Source of the DNA: a virus | Lineage: Duplodnaviria; Heunggongvirae; Uroviricota; Caudoviricetes | IMG/VR virus record: IMGVR_UViG_3300042006_000024 | Strand: one strand, 5' to 3' | DNA: 64,000 nucleotides | In this document: one piece after another, positions 4,519 to 63,696 of the stretch | Layout of the letters: every line of letters starts with the position of its first letter | How positions within the stretch are numbered: the stretch's first letter is position 1 | Program-made: the position numbers and the translations under genes | Notes under the pieces: model-generated | What the model was told of the DNA's origin: nothing | Seen by the model: only the letters and a program-made list of their open reading frames with translations | The model's database searches: none

Positions 4519-5100
4519 TGCGTTGTCTTTCAGGAACTGCATGAAGATGTCTTCATGCACATCATAACCAAACAAGTTGATCTGTTTACGTTTAGGTCTG
4601 AAGTTCGACACAACGGTCTTGACTTCGACATCAAAGATGATTTCATCGACGCTACTGAACTTATCATCAAACGCGTTTTGAGTTTGGATGGAATAGATAA
4701 CACCATCAGTGTCACCGATGAGTCCATACAAAGGGCCGTTGAAGGTGTGAATGATTGAACCTAGATTTCGATCACTGAAGCCAAGGTTGACCAAGTGCTG
4801 AAACGCTTGTCGGATGACGTCTTTGTCATTACCAGTTTTGATCTTCAATGCTTTGAACTTGCCGAGACCCAGGAACTTGGCGATGTCCATTTGAAGGCCT
4901 TTAGGCTTTTCCTTAGTATGGACCAGGCTGCCATTTTGACTAAGGTAAATGTAGTGCCGGTCATTTATAGCATGACTGTACACGCCATAACCATCAACAA
5001 TCGTGTGACCTTCTGCGCGCAGTTTCGCACGCACTCGACTCCAGATCTCTGAGCCGTGAGCTTGCATGTCTTTAGTTGTGAAGTAGTCGTTTGTACGCAT
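4501..5100 (-). CDS. hypothetical protein (199 aa)
   Basis: ORF. Its start abuts the stop of the next gene. Confidence 0.55.
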   Translation of the reverse strand: MRTNDYFTTKDMQAHGSEIWSRVRAKLRAEGHTIVDGYGVYSHAINDRHYIYLSQNGSLVHTKEKPKGLQMDIAKFLGLGKFKALKIKTGNDKDVIRQAFQHLVNLGFSDRNLGSIIHTFNGPLYGLIGDTDGVIYSIQTQNAFDDKFSSVDEIIFDVEVKTVVSNFRPKRKQINLFGYDVHEDIFMQFLKDNAIKSAT

Positions 5101-5669
5101 TATGCAACCTTCAAGTCAAGTAGGAAATCACTAAGTTCGAAAAGATCAAACGTTGTGTTGATGTTGAAGCAGCGAACGTTATGTTCTTTGGCGATTCTCC
5201 ATGCAGTGGCGGTACCACCTTCAGGAACGCCTTTACGATCAACCGGCGCCCAGCATATAAGGAACTTCGATGGGTCGTCAAGTGAATGACCAAGCACCTG
5301 AAACACATTACGTGTGTGTAGGGTTCTAGCACCTTTCGAACATGCATTCCAATCGGGGTGCACACTCTTAGCGATCTGAACCGCCTTTTCCCAAATCACC
5401 GCAGGGACTTGTTCAGGGACTGTATAATTCAAACCCTTCTTTCGACCTTCAAAGCCATCCCACGGCAGGTAGATGTCGTAGAACTGTTTCGGACTACGGA
5501 TCAGATATTGCTTTGCACCGTCCTCAAACGCTGTGTCAGCCCCTTCAGCGCCACCCGAACGCAGTGTGTAGTGCGCGTGTGCGAGACGACTGCCAAGGGC
5601 TTTGAGGACTTCACATTGGGTCTTTGGCGTCCCGCGTGAGCCAACGCCTGTGTAGTAGAGGTGTTTCAT
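5100..5669 (-). CDS. DprA/Smf-like (SLOG) Rossmann-fold protein
   Basis: Motif GVGSRGTPKTQ...LRSGGAEGADTAFEDGA matches the DprA pattern G(S/T)R..P......SG.A.G.D.A..GA. Confidence 0.4.
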   Translation of the reverse strand: MKHLYYTGVGSRGTPKTQCEVLKALGSRLAHAHYTLRSGGAEGADTAFEDGAKQYLIRSPKQFYDIYLPWDGFEGRKKGLNYTVPEQVPAVIWEKAVQIAKSVHPDWNACSKGARTLHTRNVFQVLGHSLDDPSKFLICWAPVDRKGVPEGGTATAWRIAKEHNVRCFNINTTFDLFELSDFLLDLKVA

Positions 5670-5674
5670 AATGA

Positions 5675-6133
5675 TTACCGAGTCCTTGGTAGTGAGCTAA
5701 CGTCGATTTTGAAACCTTCGAGTTCGATGCTCTTGACCAGAGTCTGCATCTCAACCTTGAGGCTTTCTTGCAGTTCGCGGATCTCGATAATGCGATCACG
5801 CCATTCGCGCAGGTCACCTTTAGGCTTGATCATAGCTTCATCGAACATGTCACGGGTGATGATTGCAGTGTCATAGTCAATCGAGGCTTCAAGTTCAAGC
5901 GGATCAGAACTTCCAGGTTTAGACGGGTGGTAAACACCTTGACATAAAGCGTCAGCGGTCGACGAGTTCGAACCGCGACCGTAAGTCCACTGATCGGAAT
6001 CATCGTCGAACTTGGGAGTTTTGCGCCAGTAGTAAATGCCGCCGTCACCGTCTTGTGTGATAGCGACACAACCTTCGCGTGGATACTCGGTCAGGAAAGT
6101 CTGAACGAGGTTAAGCAGTTTCTTACGTGCCAT
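5675..6133 (-). CDS. hypothetical protein (152 aa)
   Basis: ORF with an RBS. Sits downstream of the terminator that closes the NAMPT operon. Confidence 0.5.
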   Translation of the reverse strand: MARKKLLNLVQTFLTEYPREGCVAITQDGDGGIYYWRKTPKFDDDSDQWTYGRGSNSSTADALCQGVYHPSKPGSSDPLELEASIDYDTAIITRDMFDEAMIKPKGDLREWRDRIIEIRELQESLKVEMQTLVKSIELEGFKIDVSSLPRTR

Positions 6134-6150: not shown

Positions 6151-6180
6151 CGAAGAAAAGGGGCCTTGCGACCCCTTATT
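6151..6180 (-). terminator. intrinsic terminator after the NAMPT-like gene
   Basis: Minus-strand RNA aagggg-ucgcaagg-cccctt followed by UUUCUU. Confidence 0.55.
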
Positions 6181-6193
6181 CAGTTAGTTGATA

Positions 6194-7888
6194 TTAGTCA
6201 ATCAGGCGTTGACGAATCTCGGACAGACTTGTTTCAGATACAACACCGTTGTGGAACAGAATCTCCATCGCACCCAGGTTGTCGATATCACTCATCGGTT
6301 GTTGGTCGTACAAGACGAACTCATCACCTTCTTTCTCGACTCGCAGAAGACCTTTAGCCGACTTCTTGAGCGCGTCACCAGTCTTCGGATCTTTGAACAG
6401 CTCAATAAATTCACCGTCAATGACAGTAGCTGTGGCTTTAACAGCACTACCAAAAGTATCACGAGTTGAATAGTTGTAAGTGTAACTGCCAATGCCAAGT
6501 ACCACATTGCCACTTGCGAAGCCCTTATCCATCAGACGTTGCAGAATTTCCCACTGACGTTCCAGGGTGATGCTGTCACCGTAGATCAGACCGATGTGAG
6601 TGTCGAGTTGTTTGAAGCCTTTGTCGGAGTAAGTACCACCGAAGGTTTCCCACAGCAGTTCGATAGAACCTTTGACTTCGTGATCTGGTATAACTTCACC
6701 AACTGCTACGCGGCTTGGGTCAACACGATCAAATCGACGATACTGATCACCAATACGAACAACTTGAGCCTTACCGATAGAACTCAGCTTTGCGGTTTCG
6801 AAGTCATACGCTTTGTAGAATGCATCAACACTATCGAACTCATCAGCCAGAACATGTAAACCGCAGATGATTTCGATTGGATTGCCGCTGTCAGGGCGAA
6901 TGACCAAACGACCATCACGCGCCATAATTGCCTCTTTGACGCCCGGAGTAGGCAAGAGCTGAGTCAGCAAACCCCAGTAATCGTAGGTGTCAGCAACATA
7001 GCTGGCAAAGCCTGTAGGCACGATGCGAGTGATGTAGTCGAGCAGGAAGCGAACTTCACCGAGCAACAGGTATTGTTCATCGGTCATGCCAGGCATTTCT
7101 TCGCGCAGTGCACGAACGTGGAACAGGATGTTGCTGGAACTGATGCTGTGTTCAGTAGCAGGTACACTACCACCAATCAGTTCGTTGTCGGAATCGGCGT
7201 GGTAGTAGTCTTCCACGTAGTCGATAGCCGATACCACATCAGTGCCAGTGAACGACAGCAAGTGAGCAGCACCCGAACGCGCAGCATCTTCAGGACCCGA
7301 CATACCGCGAGAAGAGAAGTCGTGACCTTGCCACTGGATCGCTTCTTTCGGCGTACCAGTCAGTTCAGCGAAGTGTTCGAACACGCGGCGATATTCGTAG
7401 GCGATGGTCGCGTTGAGACTGGATTTCCAGTTCGAGTTCGATAGAGTCGGTTCGATGTAGTTGACCAACCAGGCGAAGTCAGGGTGAGTGTTGTTGATCA
7501 TCATTGTTGGAACTTTCATGCTGACGCGACTGCCTTCTGGCAGAGCGCGTACAAGCAGCGGCAGATAGCCCAGATCATGCAGTTGAGCGAAGCCGTCAGC
7601 AGGGATAACGCCAGGGCCCATCATGTTGTTACAACGACGTTGATAGCGCGCAACAGCTTGTTCTTTTGGTAGGTTGAAGAACTGTTCATTGAACGCTTCA
7701 ACCAGGAATTCGGACGCGAAACCTTGACCACCAAACACAACCATCTTCTTGTCGAACAGTGGGCCACCTTTGAACAGGCGGTCACTGCGAGGGGTGAAAT
7801 TTGAAGACAGGAAAGTAGTGAATATGCGCATCATTGCGCGGTGACCAAGTTTATACGCGTCGGTTGCTGACAGAGGTTGCAGTTTCAT
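6194..7888 (-). CDS. nicotinamide phosphoribosyltransferase family protein (NAMPT/NadV-like; Namat-like)
   Basis: 564 aa. N-terminal DAYKLGH motif and typical NAMPT length. Sits 50 nt downstream of the Prs-like gene with its own RBS. Confidence 0.85.
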   Translation of the reverse strand: MKLQPLSATDAYKLGHRAMMRIFTTFLSSNFTPRSDRLFKGGPLFDKKMVVFGGQGFASEFLVEAFNEQFFNLPKEQAVARYQRRCNNMMGPGVIPADGFAQLHDLGYLPLLVRALPEGSRVSMKVPTMMINNTHPDFAWLVNYIEPTLSNSNWKSSLNATIAYEYRRVFEHFAELTGTPKEAIQWQGHDFSSRGMSGPEDAARSGAAHLLSFTGTDVVSAIDYVEDYYHADSDNELIGGSVPATEHSISSSNILFHVRALREEMPGMTDEQYLLLGEVRFLLDYITRIVPTGFASYVADTYDYWGLLTQLLPTPGVKEAIMARDGRLVIRPDSGNPIEIICGLHVLADEFDSVDAFYKAYDFETAKLSSIGKAQVVRIGDQYRRFDRVDPSRVAVGEVIPDHEVKGSIELLWETFGGTYSDKGFKQLDTHIGLIYGDSITLERQWEILQRLMDKGFASGNVVLGIGSYTYNYSTRDTFGSAVKATATVIDGEFIELFKDPKTGDALKKSAKGLLRVEKEGDEFVLYDQQPMSDIDNLGAMEILFHNGVVSETSLSEIRQRLID

Positions 7889-7938
7889 TGTTTCAATTTC
7901 CTTTCATGTGAAATAATAACGAAGTTAGGAATTGCTGC

Positions 7939-8763
7939 TTACCAGGGGAAGTAAACCATGTTGGCAGGCATGTTGTTGATTGCAGCGCCTTTGAAGCTTG
8001 TCGTAGTGTACACACGATCAAATTCATTCGCAACTACATCAGCGCCTTTAGTGAACAAGCCGTGAGTTACAGCAAGTTCAACGCGATTTGCGGCAGTAGT
8101 CAGTTTGGCGAGTTCGATGAAAGTACGGCCACCGTCGCAGATGTCGTCAAGTACGAACAAGTTCAAACCAGTTACATCGGCAGACATTGTCAGGCTTGTA
8201 ATGTGACCAGTAGCCATGTCGCGTTCTTTGTTGCAGACGATAACACCTTTTGCACCGACTGCTTTGGCGAACGCTGCCGACTTCTTGTATGCACCTGCAT
8301 CAGGCGCGACGATGTGGATATTCGACCAGTTGCTGTGCACACGACGGAAGATGTCGATCTGGTCGATAACGACGATGTTTTTGATCAGTGCGGACATTAC
8401 ATCGCTGTGTGGATCAAGTACGACGACTTGTTCGAACCCCAGGTTGTTGATAAGTTCCGCCATTACCGCTGCACTGTGAGCATCACCGCGATTGCAGACA
8501 CGATCCTGGCGCGCATACGGCATGTAAGGGATGCGCGCTTTCAACTTGATGCCGACGTATTCACGACGCAACGCATCCACTGTAAACAGCAACTTCATGA
8601 TGTCGTCATTTGTTGCGAGGTACGCAATAACAGTGGCTTCGGTTACTTCAGGATGACCCCAACCAGAAGGCTTTTCACTGTTGAGGCCAATACCCACTTC
8701 ACCAGCAGGGAATTGTTTGTTCTCAATGTCGTAGGTAACATTACCGATAATATACTTGATCAC
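7939..8763 (-). CDS. ribose-phosphate pyrophosphokinase family protein (Prs-like; candidate ADPR pyrophosphokinase Adps)
   Basis: 274 aa with a GTG start. PYARQDR motif and PRPP-binding loop (LDDICDGGRT). Confidence 0.8.
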   Translation of the reverse strand: MIKYIIGNVTYDIENKQFPAGEVGIGLNSEKPSGWGHPEVTEATVIAYLATNDDIMKLLFTVDALRREYVGIKLKARIPYMPYARQDRVCNRGDAHSAAVMAELINNLGFEQVVVLDPHSDVMSALIKNIVVIDQIDIFRRVHSNWSNIHIVAPDAGAYKKSAAFAKAVGAKGVIVCNKERDMATGHITSLTMSADVTGLNLFVLDDICDGGRTFIELAKLTTAANRVELAVTHGLFTKGADVVANEFDRVYTTTSFKGAAINNMPANMVYFPW

Positions 8764-8800
8764 GGGTTCTACTTCTCAGGGTTATGTTGATAGTGCAGGA

Positions 8801-8829
8801 AGTCTACACTGCCTTAGTCTATACAGCAA
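8801..8829 (-). promoter_or_regulatory. putative sigma70 promoter for the Prs/NAMPT operon
   Basis: Minus strand reads TTGCTG, 17-nt spacer, TAGACT. The -10 is weak. Confidence 0.3.
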
Positions 8830-8852
8830 GTTCTTTTTGAGTAGACAAAGAA

Positions 8853-8880
8853 AAGCCCTCAAACAAAGAGGGCTTTTCGG
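8853..8880. terminator. intrinsic terminator (gccctc/gagggc stem with T-tracts on both strands)
   Basis: aagccctc-aaacaaag-agggcttttc. Separates the SPFH gene from the Prs operon. Confidence 0.55.
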
Positions 8881-8894
8881 GTGACGCTTAGGTG

Positions 8895-9743
8895 TTACTT
8901 GGCGAAGACACGGTTGCTCAGACCGCTGCTACCCATTGCTTCGTATGGTACGAAGATCGCTGCCTTGTTCTCGGCCATCTTCTCCATCACTTCCAGCTGA
9001 CGGTATTGCAGCAGAGTAGGCGTGATGCCCGCGGCGGTGATGTTGTTTTCGTCACGAACAGTCTCAGCACGTTTCATGCGGATGTCGTAGTCTTTGGCAG
9101 CAAGCAGCAGTTCGTTTGCCCGTTCAACCATCTTCACAGCCTGGTTGTTTGCTTCGGTTTCAATCGCCATCTCACGTTCGTTGCGCTTCTGGATCGCGTT
9201 ATCGATTACGTCAGGATAGTCGATGTTCGCCATCGTGATGTTCGACACTTCCAGAGGACTGTTCGCCATCGCTTTGCGCAATTGATCGGTCAGGTCGTTG
9301 CTGATCTTGTCGTAGTTGTTGGCAACTTCGGTCACCTTGTACTTACTCAAGACAGACCGCGATACAGTTTGGACCATGTCCTTACCGTACACACCGTAGA
9401 CCATCGGCAGCGTCACCTGGAATTGCTGGTGCTTGATGTCGTTGAACATCGAGTTGATCACCTTCTCATTACCGTTGATGCGAGTACGGAAGCGCACTTG
9501 CAGGTTCAGGGTCAGGTCGTCGGCCATCTTGACTTGGATCGCCTCGGCCATGGTCTGAGTACTGGTGTCAAGGATCACCATGTCTTCAGTCCACCAGAGC
9601 CAGTACTTGCCAGTCTCTTTGACATCAGTGGAGTAGCCTGCGGCCGACAACACTTTACCTTTTGCTGCTGGCGGAACGGTCACTTTACCACAACCAACCA
9701 TTGCCAGGGCGAGTACTGCACAAACAATCATTTTCTTAAACAT
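8895..9743 (-). CDS. SPFH/band-7 domain lipoprotein
   Basis: Internal start MFKKMIVCAVLALAMVGCG gives a lipobox. Prohibitin-like coiled-coil C-terminus. The longer upstream extension overlaps its neighbour. Confidence 0.7.
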   Translation of the reverse strand: MFKKMIVCAVLALAMVGCGKVTVPPAAKGKVLSAAGYSTDVKETGKYWLWWTEDMVILDTSTQTMAEAIQVKMADDLTLNLQVRFRTRINGNEKVINSMFNDIKHQQFQVTLPMVYGVYGKDMVQTVSRSVLSKYKVTEVANNYDKISNDLTDQLRKAMANSPLEVSNITMANIDYPDVIDNAIQKRNEREMAIETEANNQAVKMVERANELLLAAKDYDIRMKRAETVRDENNITAAGITPTLLQYRQLEVMEKMAENKAAIFVPYEAMGSSGLSNRVFAK

Positions 9744-9744
9744 G

Positions 9745-10062
9745 TTACTTCGTTTCCTTGAGTTTGAGGGAATCTTCGAATTGCTGTTTGATGGAAGCCG
9801 CAGTATTGTGCGTGCTTTCAACTTTGTCAATAGTCAAAACAGGAGTTTCGACATCGAATTTGTTGCGACCAAGATCAGCTTGGCGAGTGCCTACGTCAAA
9901 CGCGCTGAGACCCACTACAGCAGCGAGAACCAGGGTAGCTAGTGCAACATACTTCTTGTGCTGGCGAAAGCTGTGCAGGGTGAGTAACGCAGTCACAGTC
10001 AGCACTACGATTGCCATGTACAGTTGCAGCGGGCTCCAACTCAGGTGAATTTCAACCATCAC
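9745..10062 (-). CDS. membrane protein, possible NfeD-like partner of the SPFH protein
   Basis: 105 aa with two predicted TM helices. Abuts the SPFH gene with a 1-nt gap. Confidence 0.45.
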   Translation of the reverse strand: MMVEIHLSWSPLQLYMAIVVLTVTALLTLHSFRQHKKYVALATLVLAAVVGLSAFDVGTRQADLGRNKFDVETPVLTIDKVESTHNTAASIKQQFEDSLKLKETK

Positions 10063-10640: not shown

Positions 10641-11723
10641 TCAATCGCCCTGTTTGATCAAATAACGGTTCGAAATTGCCTTGAACTGCCAGTTGCGAGT
10701 CAACGACTTGAACACCAAGCCCTCGCGAAACTTACCTTTCAAACCACTGTCACCATCGGCCAGAGCCAAGATTTCGGCCATAGTAGGAGGCAACATCATG
10801 CGCACGCTGAACGTAGGGACCATCTGCAAGTCAAGATCATCACAGACATGCCTTGCCTCACCAGGCAACATGTACTGCTGAGCATCGATGTCAAACACGT
10901 TGTAGACGTACAGCTCAACGTCATCCAAGCCTTCGAAGTTTGACTGGATACCAGGTCCAACCATCTCACCTTGAAGTGCAATGTTACGACCAGTCACGGC
11001 ATGATAGGTGCGCAGTTTGTCGTCAAGGTTGTATTTGTTGAAGGTCTTGACAAAGAGGTTTTCCTCATTGCCTTCAAACTTCAGCTCCAGGTTACGCGAG
11101 CAAACGCCAGTGACAACAACATCCTCAGCATTTTTCTTGACATAGCCTGTGAAGCTGCTACCATCAAGCTTGTAGGTAACGTTGAACTCTTCCTGAGAGT
11201 CAACAGCGTCTTGATACTGACGCTTGAGGTTCTGCACCCGTTCCTGATCGGACTTGCGGATGAACTGCGGGAAGTTGCCTTTGGCCAACCCTGCAAGATT
11301 CGCATTGACTGGGCGTTCCCATTTCAGGATGCCCAGGGTTTCAGTCAGGTCAGTTTCTGTGCCTACCAACAGGTCATCGGCCAACTGAACAGCGATAGCA
11401 TCACCGTTAGGCAACTCTTTCACAGGGATCAACAAGCCTTGACTGATCTCACCGCGCAGTTTGATGGTGCGCAGACGCTCACCTTTGACGCCTTCGTAGA
11501 CCTTCGGCTCTTTGTCTTTCGACAGGAACGGTGCGATCTCATGTGGAATCCAGCTGTCAACTTCGAAGTAACAGGCAATATCACCAGTCACATACAAACC
11601 TTTCTGAGCAACTACACGCCAGCCACCGATTGTGGCGATGTCAAGGGCATCAGCGTTTGGGTGTGCAATTACTTCATCCAGCACAACCAAACGCGCTAGT
11701 TTACGTTCACTCATTTCTTTCAA
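10641..11723 (-). CDS. ATP-dependent RNA ligase (Rnl family)
   Basis: Nucleotidyltransferase motif I YKLDGSS, motif IV EGLVFK, motif V KAISNRYLIK. 360 aa. Confidence 0.65.
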   Translation of the reverse strand: MKEMSERKLARLVVLDEVIAHPNADALDIATIGGWRVVAQKGLYVTGDIACYFEVDSWIPHEIAPFLSKDKEPKVYEGVKGERLRTIKLRGEISQGLLIPVKELPNGDAIAVQLADDLLVGTETDLTETLGILKWERPVNANLAGLAKGNFPQFIRKSDQERVQNLKRQYQDAVDSQEEFNVTYKLDGSSFTGYVKKNAEDVVVTGVCSRNLELKFEGNEENLFVKTFNKYNLDDKLRTYHAVTGRNIALQGEMVGPGIQSNFEGLDDVELYVYNVFDIDAQQYMLPGEARHVCDDLDLQMVPTFSVRMMLPPTMAEILALADGDSGLKGKFREGLVFKSLTRNWQFKAISNRYLIKQGD

Positions 11724-12544
11724 TCCTTCAGGTCAGGGTGTTTGTGTTTGTTGTCAAGCATGAGTTCGATTTCACGCGCTTTGTAACTGATTTCTTCTTT
11801 GGAGAAGGTCGACTCACGGTAATCGTGATAGCGCTGCCATGCACGCATCATTTCATACATCGGTGTGTTGTAGTCAATCTCAGATATGCCAACCCCAAGC
11901 GACTTTGCTACAGCCAAGCGAACACCGAGGGCTGATAGATTGACACCTTCGAGATCCTCGCTGTAGAGTTTCGGATCGATCAACGCACCGACAGCACACA
12001 TGCAACCATCAGAGGTGCGATACTGACACGAACCGTGTTCACCGGCTGCTTGCTTGCCTTGCTTGAGCAAGTGGTCAGCAATATAGCCTGAAACTTGTTT
12101 GATATGACGCTTGGTGATTTCACCGGTCATGTCGTACCGTTCGCGAGTTTTCAGGTGCTCATGCATTGTCGATGGAGAGTCTGGACTACCGGCGTCTGCA
12201 CCTTCTTGAATCCAACGCCCGTAATTAATGCGGAATACAGGTTCACCGTCTTCGTACTGCGCGTATGCGGAATCGTGGTAGTTCTGCCAAGCTTTCAACA
12301 ATGCGAGTGTGTCCACATCGAGCTTCATTTTCAGCGACAAGCCAACGGCGGTGATGATCTCTTCGCGCCCCATAGCCTTGCCTTCAAGTTCAGGGCTGTA
12401 GACTTCATCGGGGATCAAACAACCGACGGCACACATGTTACCGTTGATGTTGCTATACTTACATGTACCATTGTTAGTTTCGCTTTTCGCCTTCTGTTTG
12501 ATCAGATGGTCACGGATCTTTTCGGAGATTTGCAGGAGAGTCAT
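11720..12544 (-). CDS. protein with tandem duplication of a Cys-motif domain (family copies 1 and 2)
   Basis: Two ~135-aa repeats, each with HLIKQ, C.YR and MCAVGCLI motifs. Confidence 0.6.
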   Translation of the reverse strand: MTLLQISEKIRDHLIKQKAKSETNNGTCKYSNINGNMCAVGCLIPDEVYSPELEGKAMGREEIITAVGLSLKMKLDVDTLALLKAWQNYHDSAYAQYEDGEPVFRINYGRWIQEGADAGSPDSPSTMHEHLKTRERYDMTGEITKRHIKQVSGYIADHLLKQGKQAAGEHGSCQYRTSDGCMCAVGALIDPKLYSEDLEGVNLSALGVRLAVAKSLGVGISEIDYNTPMYEMMRAWQRYHDYRESTFSKEEISYKAREIELMLDNKHKHPDLKD

Positions 12545-12945
12545 ACGGTCAGTTCCTTGAGAATCATATCGTGGAAGTGGGTAGGGCTGTTTGGCTCATC
12601 GCTCGGCTTATTAACCCAGTCAGTGTAGCGATAGGTTTTAGTCGACAGCACGTCGCAACTTTCATAAAACGAATCGTGATACGACTGCCATGCGCGAAAC
12701 AGTTGAGACGCTGTTTCATCAACCAACACGCCAGACAGTTTGAGCGCATCAGTGATAGACGGGTCGTCTGCCATCTTACCTTCAAGGTCAGGGTCATATG
12801 CATCATCATTGATGAGGCAACCGACTGCACACATCAAGCCTGCCTCACTGCGGTATTTGCAACTACCATGATCGCTTACGCTTTTGCTACGTTGTTTGAT
12901 CAGATGGTCACGGATTGTTTCGGACAACTGTACAAGAGTTTTCAT
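12541..12945 (-). CDS. Cys-motif domain protein (family copy 3)
   Basis: 134 aa. IRDHLIKQ...CKYR...MCAVGCLI...WQSYHD. Confidence 0.6.
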   Translation of the reverse strand: MKTLVQLSETIRDHLIKQRSKSVSDHGSCKYRSEAGLMCAVGCLINDDAYDPDLEGKMADDPSITDALKLSGVLVDETASQLFRAWQSYHDSFYESCDVLSTKTYRYTDWVNKPSDEPNSPTHFHDMILKELTV

Positions 12946-50193: not shown

Positions 50194-50814
50194 TCAGACG
50201 TGACTCACCTCAAAGTTTTCATACACCACCCAACCACCTTCAGACTCAGGACCCTCGTTGTCGATGACATAAGCGCCTGCTTTGAAGTAGAACGGGAACT
50301 CGGTCCACGCCGCATCGACAGTCACTGCATACACCAAGCCGTTAAGCTTGATCTGCAAGACATCGTCAGTGCCCATTGCCAAGCTATAGCTGAACGACTC
50401 GCCAAGCTTGCAGGGTACTGTGAGGACTTTGACGGCGGTGCCGCTAGGCTTCAGTCGCAAGTCAACCCGCGCAACGCCATTCCACCATGTAACCATCAGG
50501 AATGGGTTAGGTGCTTTGTGCGCGTGAATTTGACCGATGATGACTTTACCTGAACTCGGCGCAAGCTCGACACGAACCGTGCCTTGCATGGTGTGAACAG
50601 CTTCCCCTGCTACCCAGTTATAAGACTCGGCACTGTCAGGAAGCGTTTCACGACTTTCAGTGCGTGGACTAGAGCTAGAACCAGATGTGTCACCTAGTAC
50701 TGAGCACCAATAGTTGGTGTGGCCTTTAGGATCGGTCCACACCAGATTGGCTGGAGGTTTCTCAGGGTACAGATAGACCTGACCGTGTGCAGTGATATTG
50801 CCAAAGCTGAACAT
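50194..50814 (-). CDS. polysaccharide lyase family 7 (alginate-lyase-like) protein
   Basis: PL7 signature blocks RTESRE, QIH and YFKAGAY in the right order. 206 aa. Confidence 0.55.
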   Translation of the reverse strand: MFSFGNITAHGQVYLYPEKPPANLVWTDPKGHTNYWCSVLGDTSGSSSSPRTESRETLPDSAESYNWVAGEAVHTMQGTVRVELAPSSGKVIIGQIHAHKAPNPFLMVTWWNGVARVDLRLKPSGTAVKVLTVPCKLGESFSYSLAMGTDDVLQIKLNGLVYAVTVDAAWTEFPFYFKAGAYVIDNEGPESEGGWVVYENFEVSHV

Positions 50815-51295: not shown

Positions 51296-51769
51296 TTAGA
51301 CGACAGCGCCGAAGCGGTCGAAGTGTTCAAGCGCGAGATCGAGGTACATCATCCACGCTGCACGAATGGTGAGTTTCTTGTAGCGGTAATCACAGAAGCC
51401 TTCTTTTTCATGTGGCTGCCAGGTGCTGAAATCAACAGTGCCTTCATGGTAAACGAGAACTGATGCCGCACGCTTTTCAAAGCGTGCGTTCACTTCTACA
51501 AGTGGAAAACCAGCGGGTACAGGCGTGTGGGTCCAGATGTTAACCTCAGTCTTAGGTGCAGTGCGACTATCCCAAATGATTGGATCATCAGCGTTAACAA
51601 CACCGTCACGGATGAGGATATATTCAACATCGTATTGACTGCGATCTTTCAGCTCTTGCATTGCGAAGTCAATCGCTTTCTGAACACCACCCAACCATTT
51701 ACAAAACACGAATGTCTGCTTAGGGTTGCGTGTGGCTATTGCAAAGGTATAACCGATAGGCTTGCTCAT
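51296..51769 (-). CDS. hypothetical protein (157 aa)
   Basis: ORF. Confidence 0.5.
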   Translation of the reverse strand: MSKPIGYTFAIATRNPKQTFVFCKWLGGVQKAIDFAMQELKDRSQYDVEYILIRDGVVNADDPIIWDSRTAPKTEVNIWTHTPVPAGFPLVEVNARFEKRAASVLVYHEGTVDFSTWQPHEKEGFCDYRYKKLTIRAAWMMYLDLALEHFDRFGAVV

Positions 51770-51963
51770 GCTTGTTCCTTAGGAATGGTGTGACCGATTT
51801 TCAAACGTGAGCCCAGCCAGTAATGCTTTTCCATGCGCTGAAGATCATTGATGCTGATGGTCGACATTTCTTTCCAATGCTTGAGTGCATACGCCTCAAG
51901 CTCGTTTTCAGGAAAGAGGGTGATGATACCATCACCCGTCATTTCAGCTCGCATTGAAAGCAT
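51766..51963 (-). CDS. hypothetical protein (65 aa)
   Basis: ORF with an ATGA overlap. Confidence 0.4.
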   Translation of the reverse strand: MLSMRAEMTGDGIITLFPENELEAYALKHWKEMSTISINDLQRMEKHYWLGSRLKIGHTIPKEQA

Positions 51964-52330
51964 CCAGGTTGAGTTCGTAGGTAGTGCCTACTTCTTTCAT
52001 CTTCACAAGGACGCTTTCAATGAGACCAGACCGATCGTGTGCGCGTTGCAGAGCGATGATCAAGTTTTGGTGGTGCTCAGGAACAGTCTGATTGGATACT
52101 AATCGATCCCAAGTACCGCCACCGTTTCCAGCGCCATTGTCGAATTGTGGCAGATATTCATCATCAGCGATGAGGCAACCTGCCGCACACATCAAGCCAT
52201 TGACACCACGGTAGAGGCACATTTGTGAACCAGGATTGACCGAACGCTTACCTTGTTTGATCATATGCGTGACAACCTGGTCAAACACTTGTTGAGCGGT
52301 TGCATCTTTCAGGGTGGCCAAAGTAATCAT
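51944..52330 (-). CDS. Cys-motif domain protein (family copy 5)
   Basis: N-terminal 18 aa almost identical to copy 4. CLYR...MCAAGCLIADDEY. Confidence 0.6.
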   Translation of the reverse strand: MITLATLKDATAQQVFDQVVTHMIKQGKRSVNPGSQMCLYRGVNGLMCAAGCLIADDEYLPQFDNGAGNGGGTWDRLVSNQTVPEHHQNLIIALQRAHDRSGLIESVLVKMKEVGTTYELNLDAFNAS

Positions 52331-52737
52331 TTCGAAAGCTCTTCCAGGTTGAATTGAAGTTTGTGTTTCTTGGCGAAGTGTTTGAGACGACGAGGGTAGT
52401 CAATTGCACCCACTTCATCAATGTCCCAGCGGTCTACGTTCATGTCATGCATCTTCTGGAGCATGTCGATGAAGTACGCATGCTTACTCGGGACTTGCTC
52501 AGGGAACGCCTCAGAGCAAGACAACCAGCTGCCGCGTTTGTCGAACTTGATGTCGTACTCTTCATCGGTCATGAGACAGCCTGCCGCACACATCAGACCA
52601 TTACCTGGACGGTACTGACACATACCTGCGTCGTTCGTGGCGCGGACTTTCTGTTTGATCAAGTGACGAGCCACCTGATCGAAGATCTGCTGTTCGGTTG
52701 CGTCTTTCAAATTTGCGAGTGTGATTTGCATGATCAT
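52327..52737 (-). CDS. Cys-motif domain protein (family copy 6)
   Basis: VARHLIKQK...CQYR...MCAAGCLMTDEEY...LQKMHD. Confidence 0.6.
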   Translation of the reverse strand: MIMQITLANLKDATEQQIFDQVARHLIKQKVRATNDAGMCQYRPGNGLMCAAGCLMTDEEYDIKFDKRGSWLSCSEAFPEQVPSKHAYFIDMLQKMHDMNVDRWDIDEVGAIDYPRRLKHFAKKHKLQFNLEELSK

Positions 52738-62475: not shown

Positions 62476-63696
62476 CTAGCCCTTAACGCAAATCACTTGG
62501 CGCAGGGTATGAACGATATCAACCAATGCAGACTGCGCAGCCATTACCGCTTCAATGTCTTTGTAGGCTGCCGGCGTTTCGTCGATGACCTCTTTGTCCT
62601 TACGGCACTCGATACCTTTGGTCGCTTCGATGTGATCTTCAACCGTGAACTGTTTCTTGGCTTGGGTGCGACTCATGACACGACCAGCACCGTGCGAACA
62701 CGAGCAGAACGAATCGGCGTTGCCCTTACCACGAACAATGAAGCTCTTCGCACCCATGCTACCTGGGATGATACCCAGTTGACCGACTTGCGCACTGACC
62801 GCGCCTTTACGCGTTACCAGAACATCAGAGCCGAAGTGAAACTCTTTCGACACGTAGTTATGGTGAGCATTGACCGCGCTCTTCTGCAAGCTGAATGCGG
62901 TCAAATGCTTGCGCAACACACCGAGGGTCAGCTCCATCATTTGCAGACGGTTCATCATGGCGTAATCCTGAGCCCACGACACCGCTTCACAGTAGTCGTC
63001 AAACAGTTCAGAACCTTCAACCAGATACGCCAGATCTTTGTCAGGCAAGTGAATGTACTGGCGTGCAATCTCTTCTTTTGCTTTGTCGATGAAGTATGTA
63101 CCGATCTTGTTACCAGCACCACGACTACCAGAGTGCAACATCACCCACACATGGTCACGCTCATCAAGGCACAGTTCGATGAAGTGATTACCACCGCCGA
63201 GTGTGCCCATTTGTTTCAACGGGTTGTTTTGGTTGATCAGCGGATGCTTTTCGAGGATCTTGTCGTAGCGATCAGCAAGAGTGCTATAACGCGTGATTGC
63301 AGAGTTCGGCGCGACCATCCAGCTACCATTCTTGGAACGACCTGGTGTCGACACGAAACCATGAGGTACAGCGCGTTCGATGTCACTGCGAATCAACGCC
63401 AAGCTGTCTGGAAGGTCGATTGCTCGCAAAGAGGTTTCTTGAGCGATCATACCGCAACCGATGTCAACACCTACAGCAGCAGGGATGATTGCACCTTTAG
63501 TTGCGATGACACTCCCTACAGTTGCACCCATACCCCAATGCACATCAGGCATTACTGCGAGATGCTTATGGATGAACGGCATCTGTGCGACGTTGCGCAG
63601 TTGTTCTTTGGCTTGCTCTTCGACAAGCACACCACGAGTCCATGCTTTGATCGGCTTACCGTAGCTTTCGATCATTTCATAACTTTGAACGGTCAC
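62476..63696 (-). CDS. rtcB: RtcB RNA ligase (3'-phosphate/5'-OH)
   Basis: HWGMGATVGSV and VGVDIGCGM metal-binding motifs. 406 aa. Confidence 0.85.
   Translation of the reverse strand: MTVQSYEMIESYGKPIKAWTRGVLVEEQAKEQLRNVAQMPFIHKHLAVMPDVHWGMGATVGSVIATKGAIIPAAVGVDIGCGMIAQETSLRAIDLPDSLALIRSDIERAVPHGFVSTPGRSKNGSWMVAPNSAITRYSTLADRYDKILEKHPLINQNNPLKQMGTLGGGNHFIELCLDERDHVWVMLHSGSRGAGNKIGTYFIDKAKEEIARQYIHLPDKDLAYLVEGSELFDDYCEAVSWAQDYAMMNRLQMMELTLGVLRKHLTAFSLQKSAVNAHHNYVSKEFHFGSDVLVTRKGAVSAQVGQLGIIPGSMGAKSFIVRGKGNADSFCSCSHGAGRVMSRTQAKKQFTVEDHIEATKGIECRKDKEVIDETPAAYKDIEAVMAAQSALVDIVHTLRQVICVKG

Follow-up and report, generated by a model that had tools for sequence, protein, structure and literature searches.

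NARP1 is a well-characterised phage system that pairs a Prs-like enzyme, Adps, with a Nampt-like enzyme, Namat, and is carried by about 4.3% of sequenced phages. The system counters NAD+-depleting defence by SIR2-HerA, DSR1/2, type I Thoeris or SEFIR. Adps proteins are marked by the loss of the C-terminal alpha11-alpha12 module (PMC13586617) and contain a remodelled PP (donor) loop, C215–S220 in ICP1, that is conserved across the family. In Namat, the SCH motif follows the consensus GS-X-phi-X-phi-X-phi-TRD, in which X is aromatic (PMC12774641), and the SCL loop supplies an adenine-stacking R, K or Y. The gene pair of phage pf16 was catalogued as NARP1 by homology alone, with its orthologues entered under ‘Namat within 10 genes: Yes’ and under ‘Adps-associated’ (Osterman et al., 2024, Tables S1/S2).

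We analysed a 64-kb stretch of phage DNA (the window), which represents ~40% of a roughly 160-kb phage genome. In this window, members of the Prs and Nampt families are encoded by adjacent, co-oriented genes, and the phage context is given by synteny with pf16 and by structural genes. Judged from its sequence, the pair is very probably the NARP1 operon (adps–namat) of a pf16-like (Chakrabartyvirus-related) Pseudomonas phage.

Layout and transcription boundaries of the gene pair

Both genes are located on the minus strand, a point missed in the preliminary description, which had otherwise correctly placed a Prs-like gene 50 nt upstream of a Nampt-like gene on the same strand. The locus, in the direction of transcription, contains the following features:

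8895–9830, minus strand: SPFH/Band-7 lipoprotein gene, preceding adps
8850–8878, minus strand: intrinsic-terminator hairpin of the SPFH/Band-7 lipoprotein gene, upstream boundary of the putative NARP1 unit
8764–8849, minus strand: leader and possible promoter region upstream of adps, 86 nt
7939–8763, minus strand: adps, Prs-family ADP-ribose pyrophosphokinase homologue, 274 aa, GTG start
7889–7938, minus strand: intergenic spacer, 50 nt, carrying the namat ribosome-binding site AAGGAA
6194–7888, minus strand: namat, Nampt-family nicotinamide ADP-ribose transferase homologue, 564 aa, ATG start
6152–6177, minus strand: intrinsic terminator closing the operon, with an 8-bp GC-rich stem, a GCAA loop and a U-rich tail
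5675–6133: gene of a 152-aa protein, in the slot where related Pseudomonas phages have an Adpp Macro phosphatase
5100–5669: gene of a SLOG/DprA-like protein, which recurs near Namat or Nampt

The GTG start codon of adps is preceded by a weak ribosome-binding site (GAGAAG). The N-terminus of the resulting protein aligns with that of pf16 gp164, and the same 274-aa sequence has been called as a protein in JGI metagenomes. As had been proposed, the second gene has its own ribosome-binding site, with AAGGAA 9–14 nt ahead of the namat ATG; the 50-nt spacer showed no significant structure (dG -5.7, z -0.65).

The two hairpins that had been described as closing the pair are both real on the coding strand, but only one of them closes it. 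Past namat, the hairpin at 6158–6177 has an 8-bp stem and a GCAA loop followed by UUCUUC (dG -15.7, z -2.9). The hairpin at 8850–8878 has an 11-bp stem with 6 GC pairs, followed by UUUGU (dG -19.2 kcal/mol, z -4.2), and lies 17 nt past the stop codon of the SPFH-lipoprotein gene. It is therefore the terminator of this preceding gene, insulating the pair from upstream transcription. In pf16, terminators are annotated at both equivalent places, ahead of adps and past the Namat gene.

The promoter scan upstream of adps returned no sigma-70 promoter reaching the scanner threshold. By eye, the leader offers a weak sigma-70-like candidate, with TTGCTG (8829–8824) and TAGACT (8806–8801) separated by 17 nt and 8/12 consensus matches. 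A direct repeat, GTRTAGACT, occurs twice in the leader and is not significantly enriched within the window. No usable consensus was obtained from the ‘phage-specific promoters’ annotated in pf16.

Family signatures of the two proteins

The first protein (P0001), annotated at source as ‘ribose-phosphate pyrophosphokinase’, matches the Pfam families Pribosyltran_N and Pribosyltran as well as PHROG 619, and the PYARQDR motif reported for it is present as PYMPYARQDRV. To map its residues, the published ICP1 numbering was placed on the ICP1 Adps sequence, which identified R85, H119, D155, K179 and D206-D207-I208-C209-D210-G211. K179 is equivalent to the catalytic lysine (K185 in ICP1, K162 in SPbetaL1), and R85, H119, D155, D206 and D207 are equivalent to the acceptor-site residues R87, H121, D161, D212 and D213 of ICP1; as the catalytic lysine and the acceptor-site residues are also kept in Prs, they are necessary rather than discriminating. 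The PP loop, in contrast, reads DDICDGGRTF, where canonical Prs has DDMIDTGGT (C209-D-G-G-R-T214-F215 against I-D-T-G-G-T-L). The same loop is found in the Adps of FelixO1, phi92 and RP12, and in many Adps of Osterman et al. Table S1. Past the THG motif, the protein has only 39 residues, compared with 64–75 in seven canonical Prs, which indicates that the alpha11-alpha12 module has been lost; the alignment of E. coli Prs runs past its C-terminus.

Identity percentages are too close to tell Adps and Prs apart (31% to ICP1 Adps, 27% to E. coli Prs), and the distinction is made by profiles, tree and motifs alone. The protein scored 250 bits with an Adps-HMM and 85 bits with a Prs-HMM, values that fit the leave-one-out range obtained for Adps and not the one for Prs. 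In a neighbour-joining tree with a small canonical Prs outgroup (E. coli and six Actinobacteria), it was placed inside the Adps clade, and the Adps/Prs split had 100/100 bootstrap support. Among the NCBIfam Prs models, only the broad subfamily TIGR01251 was passed (134.5 bits against a cut-off of 113; 423 for E. coli Prs). All others, every equivalog included, were missed by far, among them the best specific model, the subfamily NF002320 (104 bits, cut-off 297), and the best equivalog, NF002095 (101.5 bits, cut-off 296). A PDB sequence search gave canonical Prs as the best match (~1e-19) and cannot discriminate between the families, because the copy searched contained no Adps structures. The profile and residue comparison suggested in the preliminary description thus places the Prs-like protein with Adps and not with canonical Prs.

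The second protein matches Pfam NAPRTase and a PHROG named ‘nicotinamide phosphoribosyl transferase’. The catalytic core of the Nampt-like fold is kept (F191, R194, D217, H247, R331 and D333, equivalent to F189, R192, D215, the catalytic His, R306 and D308). Its SCH motif, the adenine clamp, reads G467-S-Y-T-Y-N-Y-S-T-R-D477 and fits the published consensus, whereas NARP2-type Nampts carry GGGLLQxxxRD at this site. In the SCL loop, which is 4–5 residues longer than in SPbetaL1, R37 lies within TPR-S-D-R and aligns with the adenine-stacking R40 of SPbetaL1, an equivalence taken from the alignment. Two lineage-specific insertions are present at approximately aa 255–283 and 346–396. Sequence search matched the protein to the SPbetaL1 Namat (9w5x) with an E value of 4e-124 and 418 bits, compared with ~130 bits for human NAMPT. 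Profile scores were 618 bits for Namat and 189 bits for NARP2-type Nampt. In the tree, the protein grouped with Adps-associated Namats, apart from the NARP2-type Nampts of KVP40-like (ValKK3), RB43 and Aeromonas-31 phages, with 100/100 bootstrap support. In three more distant relatives, a NAPRTase-family gene adjoins the Prs-like gene in all three.

The steps of a mechanism for this pair can be taken from characterised homologues. Host defence by a NADase of the SIR2, TIR or SEFIR type would split NAD+ into ADP-ribose (ADPR) and nicotinamide. Adps would transfer the beta,gamma-pyrophosphate of ATP to the 1'' hydroxyl of ADPR, generating ADPR-PP, with K179 as the putative catalytic lysine and the CDGGRT loop holding the donor phosphates. 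In Namat, nicotinamide would displace the pyrophosphate of ADPR-PP and yield NAD+ directly, and a clamp of Y469, Y473 and R37 on the adenine would favour ADPR-PP over PRPP. Such rebuilding of NAD+ most likely lets the phage survive NAD+-destroying bacterial defences. We infer substrate specificity, NAD+ output and anti-defence phenotype by analogy; identity to the experimentally studied homologues is 31–35% for Adps and 40–49% for Namat. The phage is predicted to resist SIR2-, TIR- and SEFIR-type NAD+-depleting defences, whereas aRES-type (ADPR-1''P-producing) defence should still act on it, because it has no Adpp phosphatase.

Competing readings and neighbouring genes

The pair could instead perform plain salvage, with the Prs-like enzyme converting ribose-5-phosphate (R5P) to PRPP, the Nampt-like enzyme joining PRPP and nicotinamide to NMN, and host PncC/NadD/NadE or an Nmnat completing NAD+. 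The generic annotations (Pfam, PHROGs and TIGR01251, just past its cut-off) say as much. Without ADPR-PP, Namat enzymes can also turn PRPP into NMN in vitro, and the protein described here may have such a salvage side-activity. We nevertheless regard plain salvage as very unlikely. The specific Prs models were missed by a wide margin, the loop that binds the R5P phosphate is changed from DTGGT to DGGRT (CDGGRT in its longer form), the C-terminal Prs module is absent and the protein falls in the Adps clade; its Nampt-like partner carries an ADPR-PP clamp that is absent from true Nampts. The SPbetaL1 Adps gave no product in a Prs-type control (ribose-5-phosphate in the legend, ‘PRPP and ATP’ in the text), and Bas63, the phage used for deletion in Osterman et al., remained able to overcome defence in a host deleted for pncC and nadR. 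On sequence evidence, NARP1 is clearly favoured over PRPP-plus-nicotinamide salvage. A NARP2-like arrangement, in which a true Nampt works with an Nmnat encoded outside the window and the Prs-like gene only boosts PRPP supply, gains some room from the fact that 64 kb of the roughly 160-kb genome were seen. It is extremely improbable given the 100/100 split from the KVP40-like, RB43 and Aeromonas-31 Nampts, the 189 against 618 bits, the classification of pf16 as Adps-associated and not Nmnat-associated, and the finding that no phage has both NARP1 and NARP2 (Osterman et al.). The earlier statement that no NMN adenylyltransferase lies nearby held throughout the 64-kb window: cytidylyltransferase-like, Nudix and PnuC families were not found by Pfam in 42 selected ORFs, and a six-frame motif scan of the window detected neither GxFxPxHxGH nor ISSTxxR nor a Nudix box. 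Within the same 64 kb, there was no combination of a KVP40-clade Nampt and an Nmnat, nor were NadR, Macro or RyR genes found, and the scanned ORFs had no Pfam matches to the PnuC-like transporter and NadR-like enzyme of NARP3. The NARP1 reading of the preliminary description is thus supported by family signatures, 100/100 clades, profile margins and the catalogued, syntenic pf16 pair.

A further reading extends NARP1 by one or both downstream neighbours (5675–6133 and 5100–5669), which would convert ADPR-1''P or cADPR signals into ADPR for the pair, on the model of Adpp (NARP1-AP) or RyDEP. In the related Pseudomonas phages C11 and phiPsa300, a gene for a Macro/Adpp homologue separates Namat from SLOG, at least four phage genera have a SLOG gene only a few genes away from Namat or Nampt, and viral SLOG domains have been predicted to process cADPR-type signals (PMC9503650). 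However, a terminator stands between the pair and both neighbours, and the linkage could simply reflect synteny that related Pseudomonas phages have inherited. No family could be assigned to the 152-aa protein, which is unrelated to the Macro proteins of C11, phiPsa300 and L010 and gave an unusable single-sequence AlphaFold2 model (pLDDT 49.5); in the window, pf16 and L009, the slot between Namat and SLOG is taken by a small protein unrelated to Macro/Adpp. A Pfam search found no Macro-domain Adpp among the neighbours of the pair, and PADLOC returned nothing relevant for the pair and its neighbours, with a single weak PsyrA match to the SLOG protein. In the literature searched, we found neither a characterised phage SLOG anti-defence protein nor experimental data on phage SLOG proteins. 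Conversion of these signals by the neighbours is therefore considered highly improbable. That the NARP1 core of pf16-like phages belongs to a larger NAD/ADPR counter-defence island, a new extended variant of the system, is unlikely; if true, the SLOG or 152-aa protein could act on other immune molecules derived from NAD, by conversion or sequestration, and feed ADPR into NARP1. The locus raises no new question about NARP1 itself, and the leads with discovery potential are confined to the SLOG gene that recurs nearby and the orphan found in place of Adpp.

Comparison with known systems

The pair shares protein superfamilies and an overall goal, NAD+ supply, with NARP2 (KVP40 Nampt and Nmnat) and with canonical Prs/NadV salvage. 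It differs from these in that both proteins fall in other clades, the Nampt-like protein has the clamp, the Prs-like protein lacks both the R5P loop and the C-terminal module of Prs, and the 64-kb window yielded no Nmnat. NARP1-AP, which adds a Macro-domain Adpp phosphatase to Adps–Namat (10.64898/2026.01.28.702374), has the same core pair; C11 and phiPsa300 encode an Adpp-like Macro protein downstream of Namat, where the unrelated 152-aa protein is found in our locus.

The Adps of the Vibrio phage ICP1, for which structures and kinetics are available (PMC13586617), is 31% identical. Its residues R87, H121, D161, K185, D212, D213, I214, C215, D216, G217 and F221 are all kept, F18 falls in the matching xF(S/P)xG motif, and the alpha11-alpha12 module is absent from both proteins. 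The PP loops share DDICDG and differ in their tails (AAS in ICP1, GRT here). Two ADPR-adenine contacts of ICP1 are replaced, F92 by Cys (C90) and F223 by Glu (E217), at positions that also vary among Felixounavirus Adps.

NARP1 of SPbetaL1 is biochemically defined, and structures of its Namat (9W5W/9W5X) have been determined. This Namat is 46.5% identical to ours, with all NAM/NMN-site residues kept and F392, Y396 and R40 corresponding to Y469, Y473 and R37. Our protein differs by insertions of ~29 and ~51 aa, and by a Gram-negative host. The Felixounavirus NARP1 (FelixO1, wV8, EcoM2) has an identical PP loop, DDICDGGRTF, and the SCH motif GSYTYQYMTRD, with 35% identity in Adps and 40% in Namat and a different neighbourhood. 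A large insertion at the same site in its Namat shows that such insertions occur in catalogued NARP1 Namats. Bas63 belongs to Felixounavirus.

The closest relative is the pf16 pair (gp164/gp163; KU873925_00169/_00168), with 63% identity in Adps and 70% in Namat. Its PP loop (DDICDGGRTF) and SCH motif (GSYTYNYSTRD) are identical to ours, and the gene order is the same: RNA ligase, SPFH-like protein, terminator, adps, namat, terminator, small ORF and SLOG/DprA-like gene. The pf16 Namat has 538 aa compared with 564 aa, the second insertion being longer in our protein, and the spacer measures 31 nt compared with 50 nt. At the nucleotide level, pf16 gave no match, and a search of 50,697 phage records returned only a 117-bp match, which indicates that the phage has no close sequenced relative among them. 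We advise annotating the genes as adps and namat. The locus very probably represents a further NARP1 operon, of moderate divergence, in the genome of an uncultured pf16-like Pseudomonas phage.

Organisation of the locus and its source phage

The preliminary description had placed two adjacent genes on one strand, with a 50-nt gap, a separate ribosome-binding site for the second gene and hairpins bracketing the pair. Both ORFs were confirmed on the minus strand; exactly 50 nt separate them, and AAGGAA precedes the Nampt-like start.

Genes and hairpins of the locus
7939..8763, minus: Prs-like gene, 274 aa, GTG start; Pfam Pribosyltran_N and Pribosyltran; PHROG 619, 'ribose-phosphate pyrophosphokinase'
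6194..7888, minus: Nampt-like gene, 564 aa, ATG start; Pfam NAPRTase; PHROG 448, 'nicotinamide phosphoribosyl transferase'
6158-6177, coding strand: hairpin with U-rich tail after the Nampt-like gene; dG -15.7, z -2.9
8850-8878, coding strand: hairpin upstream of the Prs-like gene; dG -19.2, z -4.2

Both hairpins fold stably, but the one at 8850-8878 belongs to the preceding gene: it starts 17 nt past the stop of an SPFH/Band-7 lipoprotein gene, is the terminator of that gene and shields the pair from upstream transcription. The SPFH/Band-7 protein itself (8895-9830, minus strand; PHROG 200, 'lipoprotein') has a lipoprotein-like N-terminus and is encoded directly upstream of the operon, a position kept in Pseudomonas phage pf16 and in another compared phage record (L009). 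Within the 86-nt leader of the Prs-like gene, no promoter matching the sigma-70 consensus was called by a simple scanner; a weak match (TTGCTG-N17-TAGACT, 8/12) was seen by eye.

No nucleotide-level relative was found among 50,697 phage records. Both proteins have their closest relatives in Pseudomonas putida phage pf16 (Chakrabartyvirus, 158 kb), with identities of 63% (Prs-like) and 70% (Nampt-like). The window and pf16 share the order RNA ligase, small ORFs, SPFH-like gene, terminator, prs, nampt, terminator, small ORF and DprA-like gene, followed by an oppositely oriented ~650-aa gene resembling a tape-measure protein. The identical 274-aa Prs-like protein is present in JGI metagenomes, its cluster is recorded on contigs up to 162 kb, and an 83% identical Namat in the same gene arrangement lies on a 163.6-kb Logan contig. 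Because of this collinearity and these metagenomic and Logan relatives, we conclude that the window comes from an uncultured pf16-like phage. A 206-aa protein (50194-50814, minus strand) matches Alginate_lyase2 (PF08787, E 5e-33); a depolymerase against Pseudomonas alginate would fit, and would support a Pseudomonas host.

A NAPRTase-family gene lies directly downstream in each of three relatives with 47-68% identity (contigs of 61-164 kb), one of which has an HNH homing endonuclease inserted between the two genes. Among Adps-clade genes, 97% have Namat within 10 genes (Osterman et al., 2024); Tables S1 and S2 of that study list the pf16 Prs-family orthologue with 'Namat within 10 genes: Yes' and the pf16 Namat orthologue as 'Adps-associated'.

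Assignment of the two proteins to Adps and Namat

The Prs-like protein is 31% identical to ICP1 Adps versus 27% to E. coli Prs, a comparison that does not decide between the two; at the sequence level, motif, C-terminus, tree and profile features do. PMC13586617 names key residues of ICP1 Adps; these were mapped onto the window protein, using a retrieved ICP1 sequence that matches the paper's numbering. Their equivalents are R85, H119, D155, the catalytic K179 and D206-D207-I208, followed by the donor 'PP loop' C209-D-G-G-R-T214-F215. DDICDG is common to the window protein and ICP1 Adps, and the full DDICDGGRTF is identical in the FelixO1, phi92, RP12 and 0507-KN2-1 Adps (Osterman et al., Table S1), whereas the canonical Prs loop reads DDMIDTGGT(L/I). 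Of the ICP1 adenine contacts, F18 is kept inside an xF(P/S)xGE motif, while F92 and F223 are replaced by Cys and Glu at positions also variable in Felixounavirus. Loss of the C-terminal alpha11-alpha12 module is described as a defining Adps signature (PMC13586617), and this module is absent here: 39 residues follow the THG motif, versus 64-75 in seven canonical Prs.

In a neighbour-joining (NJ) tree of 16 Table S1 or validated Adps, the seven canonical Prs and the window protein, Adps including the window protein separated from Prs in 100/100 bootstraps, with pf16 as its sister and Ralstonia phage RP12 next. The profile comparison proposed in the preliminary description likewise favoured Adps: with window and pf16 sequences left out of the Adps profile, the window protein scored 250 bits there, versus 85 bits on the Prs profile. 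When left out in turn, every Adps scored 166-300 and 27-121 bits on the two profiles, and every Prs 95-137 and 354-551 bits, respectively. Among NCBIfam models, the protein fell far under all cut-offs, all equivalogs included, except that of the broad TIGR01251 subfamily (134 bits; E. coli Prs 423, validated ICP1 Adps 98).

For the Nampt-like protein, two elements turn the specificity of Namat away from PRPP and towards ADPR-PP: the SCH motif, G-S-X-phi-X-phi-X-phi-T-R-D, whose aromatic X stacks on adenine, and the SCL loop, which supplies Arg, Lys or Tyr (PMC12774641). The window sequence G467-S-Y-T-Y-N-Y-S-T-R-D477 fits the SCH motif perfectly, and in the alignment R37 falls opposite R40, the stacking residue of SPbetaL1 Namat. 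In contrast, NARP2-type Nampts (KVP40-like ValKK3, RB43 and Aeromonas phage 31) have G-G-G-L-L-Q-x-x-x-R-D at the SCH site, and their SCL-equivalent loop is far shorter. The catalytic core common to both groups is preserved in the window protein (F191, R194, D217, H247, R331, D333). Scores were 418 bits (E 4e-124) to 9W5X/9W5W, cited as Namat structures in PMC12774641, versus ~130 bits to human NAMPT, and 618 bits on an Adps-associated Namat profile built without window, pf16 or L009 sequences, versus 189 bits on the NARP2-type profile. The two groups separated with an NJ bootstrap of 100/100, and tblastn over phage genomes gave identities of 35-66% for Adps-associated homologues versus 27-31% for T4-like phage Nampts.

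Two lineage-specific insertions, at ~aa 255-283 and ~346-396, set the window protein apart from the solved SPbetaL1 Namat. The second site looks like an insertion hotspot, since a longer, unrelated insertion is present there in Felixounavirus Namats. Bas63, whose NARP1 operon was deleted experimentally, is a phage that we take to belong to Felixounavirus. Since Felixounavirus Namats also carry an insertion at the second site, the insertions are no argument against Namat function; FelixO1 and wV8 of Felixounavirus are present in Table S1 of Osterman et al. In ICP1 isolate 2017_Dha_P (L002, 3001-3118), the annotation starts the Namat CDS (439 aa) at an internal Met with an in-frame stop just upstream, and the tblastn match begins ~117 nt before the annotated start; its N-terminus, which includes the SCL loop, may reflect a frameshift or an annotation problem.

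Neighbouring and other genes

Directly after the NARP1 terminator lies a 152-aa orphan (5675-6133, minus strand), whose conservation is limited to pf16-like phages (30-35% identity). It had no Pfam, PHROG or PADLOC match, and its single-sequence AF2 model was unusable (pLDDT 49.5). Two genes downstream of Namat is a standalone SLOG/DprA-like protein (5100-5669, minus strand; PHROG 768, E 6.5e-66; GGAEGAD motif).

SLOG/DprA-like family in other compared phage records
L001: 9055-9642
L009: 9078-9641
L014: 4495-5076
L015: 2324-2758
L016: 6495-7073

Pf16-like phages, Pakpunavirus, Otagovirus and RB43 all carry this family, close to an RNA ligase and no more than a few genes from Namat or Nampt. 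Only a few genes separate it from Namat in the window, in pf16 and L009, and likewise in Pakpunavirus C11 and in Otagovirus phiPsa300; the RB43 copy adjoins RNA ligase, four small genes from a NARP2-type Nampt. C11 (gp018) and phiPsa300 (phiPsa300_024) encode a Macro-domain homologue between Namat and the SLOG gene, matching the Macro protein that follows Namat in phage record L010 (blastp 1e-36 to 1e-55). These Macro proteins are Adpp-like phosphatases of the NARP1-AP type, whereas the window lineage holds an unrelated 130-152-aa orphan in the Adpp slot. [quoted passage not shown] We consider it unlikely that these neighbours are accessory to NARP1 in an extended variant, because the linkage of SLOG to Namat may be no more than synteny passed down by descent.

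The phage encodes an Rnl-type RNA ligase (PF09414 and PHA02142 OB domain; 10641-11723, minus strand), whose gene is found in synteny with NARP1 across several phage genera. Together with an RtcB tRNA-splicing ligase (62476-63696, minus strand; E 4e-129), it suggests RNA or tRNA repair against host anticodon nucleases.

Small paralogous proteins (all minus; shared segments identified by eye)
11720-12544 and 12541-12945: both match PHROG 17693 (unknown function)
51296-51769
51944-52330
52327-52737

They share an N-terminal 'ITLATLKDAT..QVF..V..HL.KQG' and a Cys motif, 'MCAAGCLI.D(D/E)EY' (by eye), and look like a single family present in several copies in this phage.

Proposed mechanism and comparison with known systems

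From the characterised homologues, we infer that a host SIR2, TIR or SEFIR effector would cleave NAD+ to ADPR and nicotinamide. Adps would then transfer pyrophosphate from ATP to ADPR at its terminal ribose, which yields ADPR-PP, and Namat would swap the pyrophosphate for nicotinamide, yielding NAD+ without an NMN intermediate or Nmnat.

Plain PRPP/NMN salvage by the same two genes is formally possible, but is contradicted by the clade and motif evidence. Of the two readings given in the preliminary description, NARP1 is favoured by the Namat SCH and SCL elements, the Adps PP loop, the 100/100 clades and the profile margins. A NARP2-like arrangement, with an Nmnat encoded outside the window, is also formally possible. 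The earlier statement that no NMN adenylyltransferase lies nearby holds within the 64-kb window: cytidylyltransferase-like Nmnat, Nudix, PnuC, Macro and RyR families had no Pfam match among the 42 window ORFs that were scanned, and a six-frame motif scan of the 64 kb was empty. The clade and motif evidence, however, contradicts this arrangement as well, and no phage carrying both NARP1 and NARP2 has been reported (Osterman et al., 2024).

NARP1 was described in 2024 and occurs in ~4.3% of sequenced phages (Osterman et al., 2024). Structural dissection of the system has followed, and the pf16 locus, the closest relative of the present one, is already catalogued. As judged from its sequence, the window locus is a new, moderately divergent copy of NARP1.
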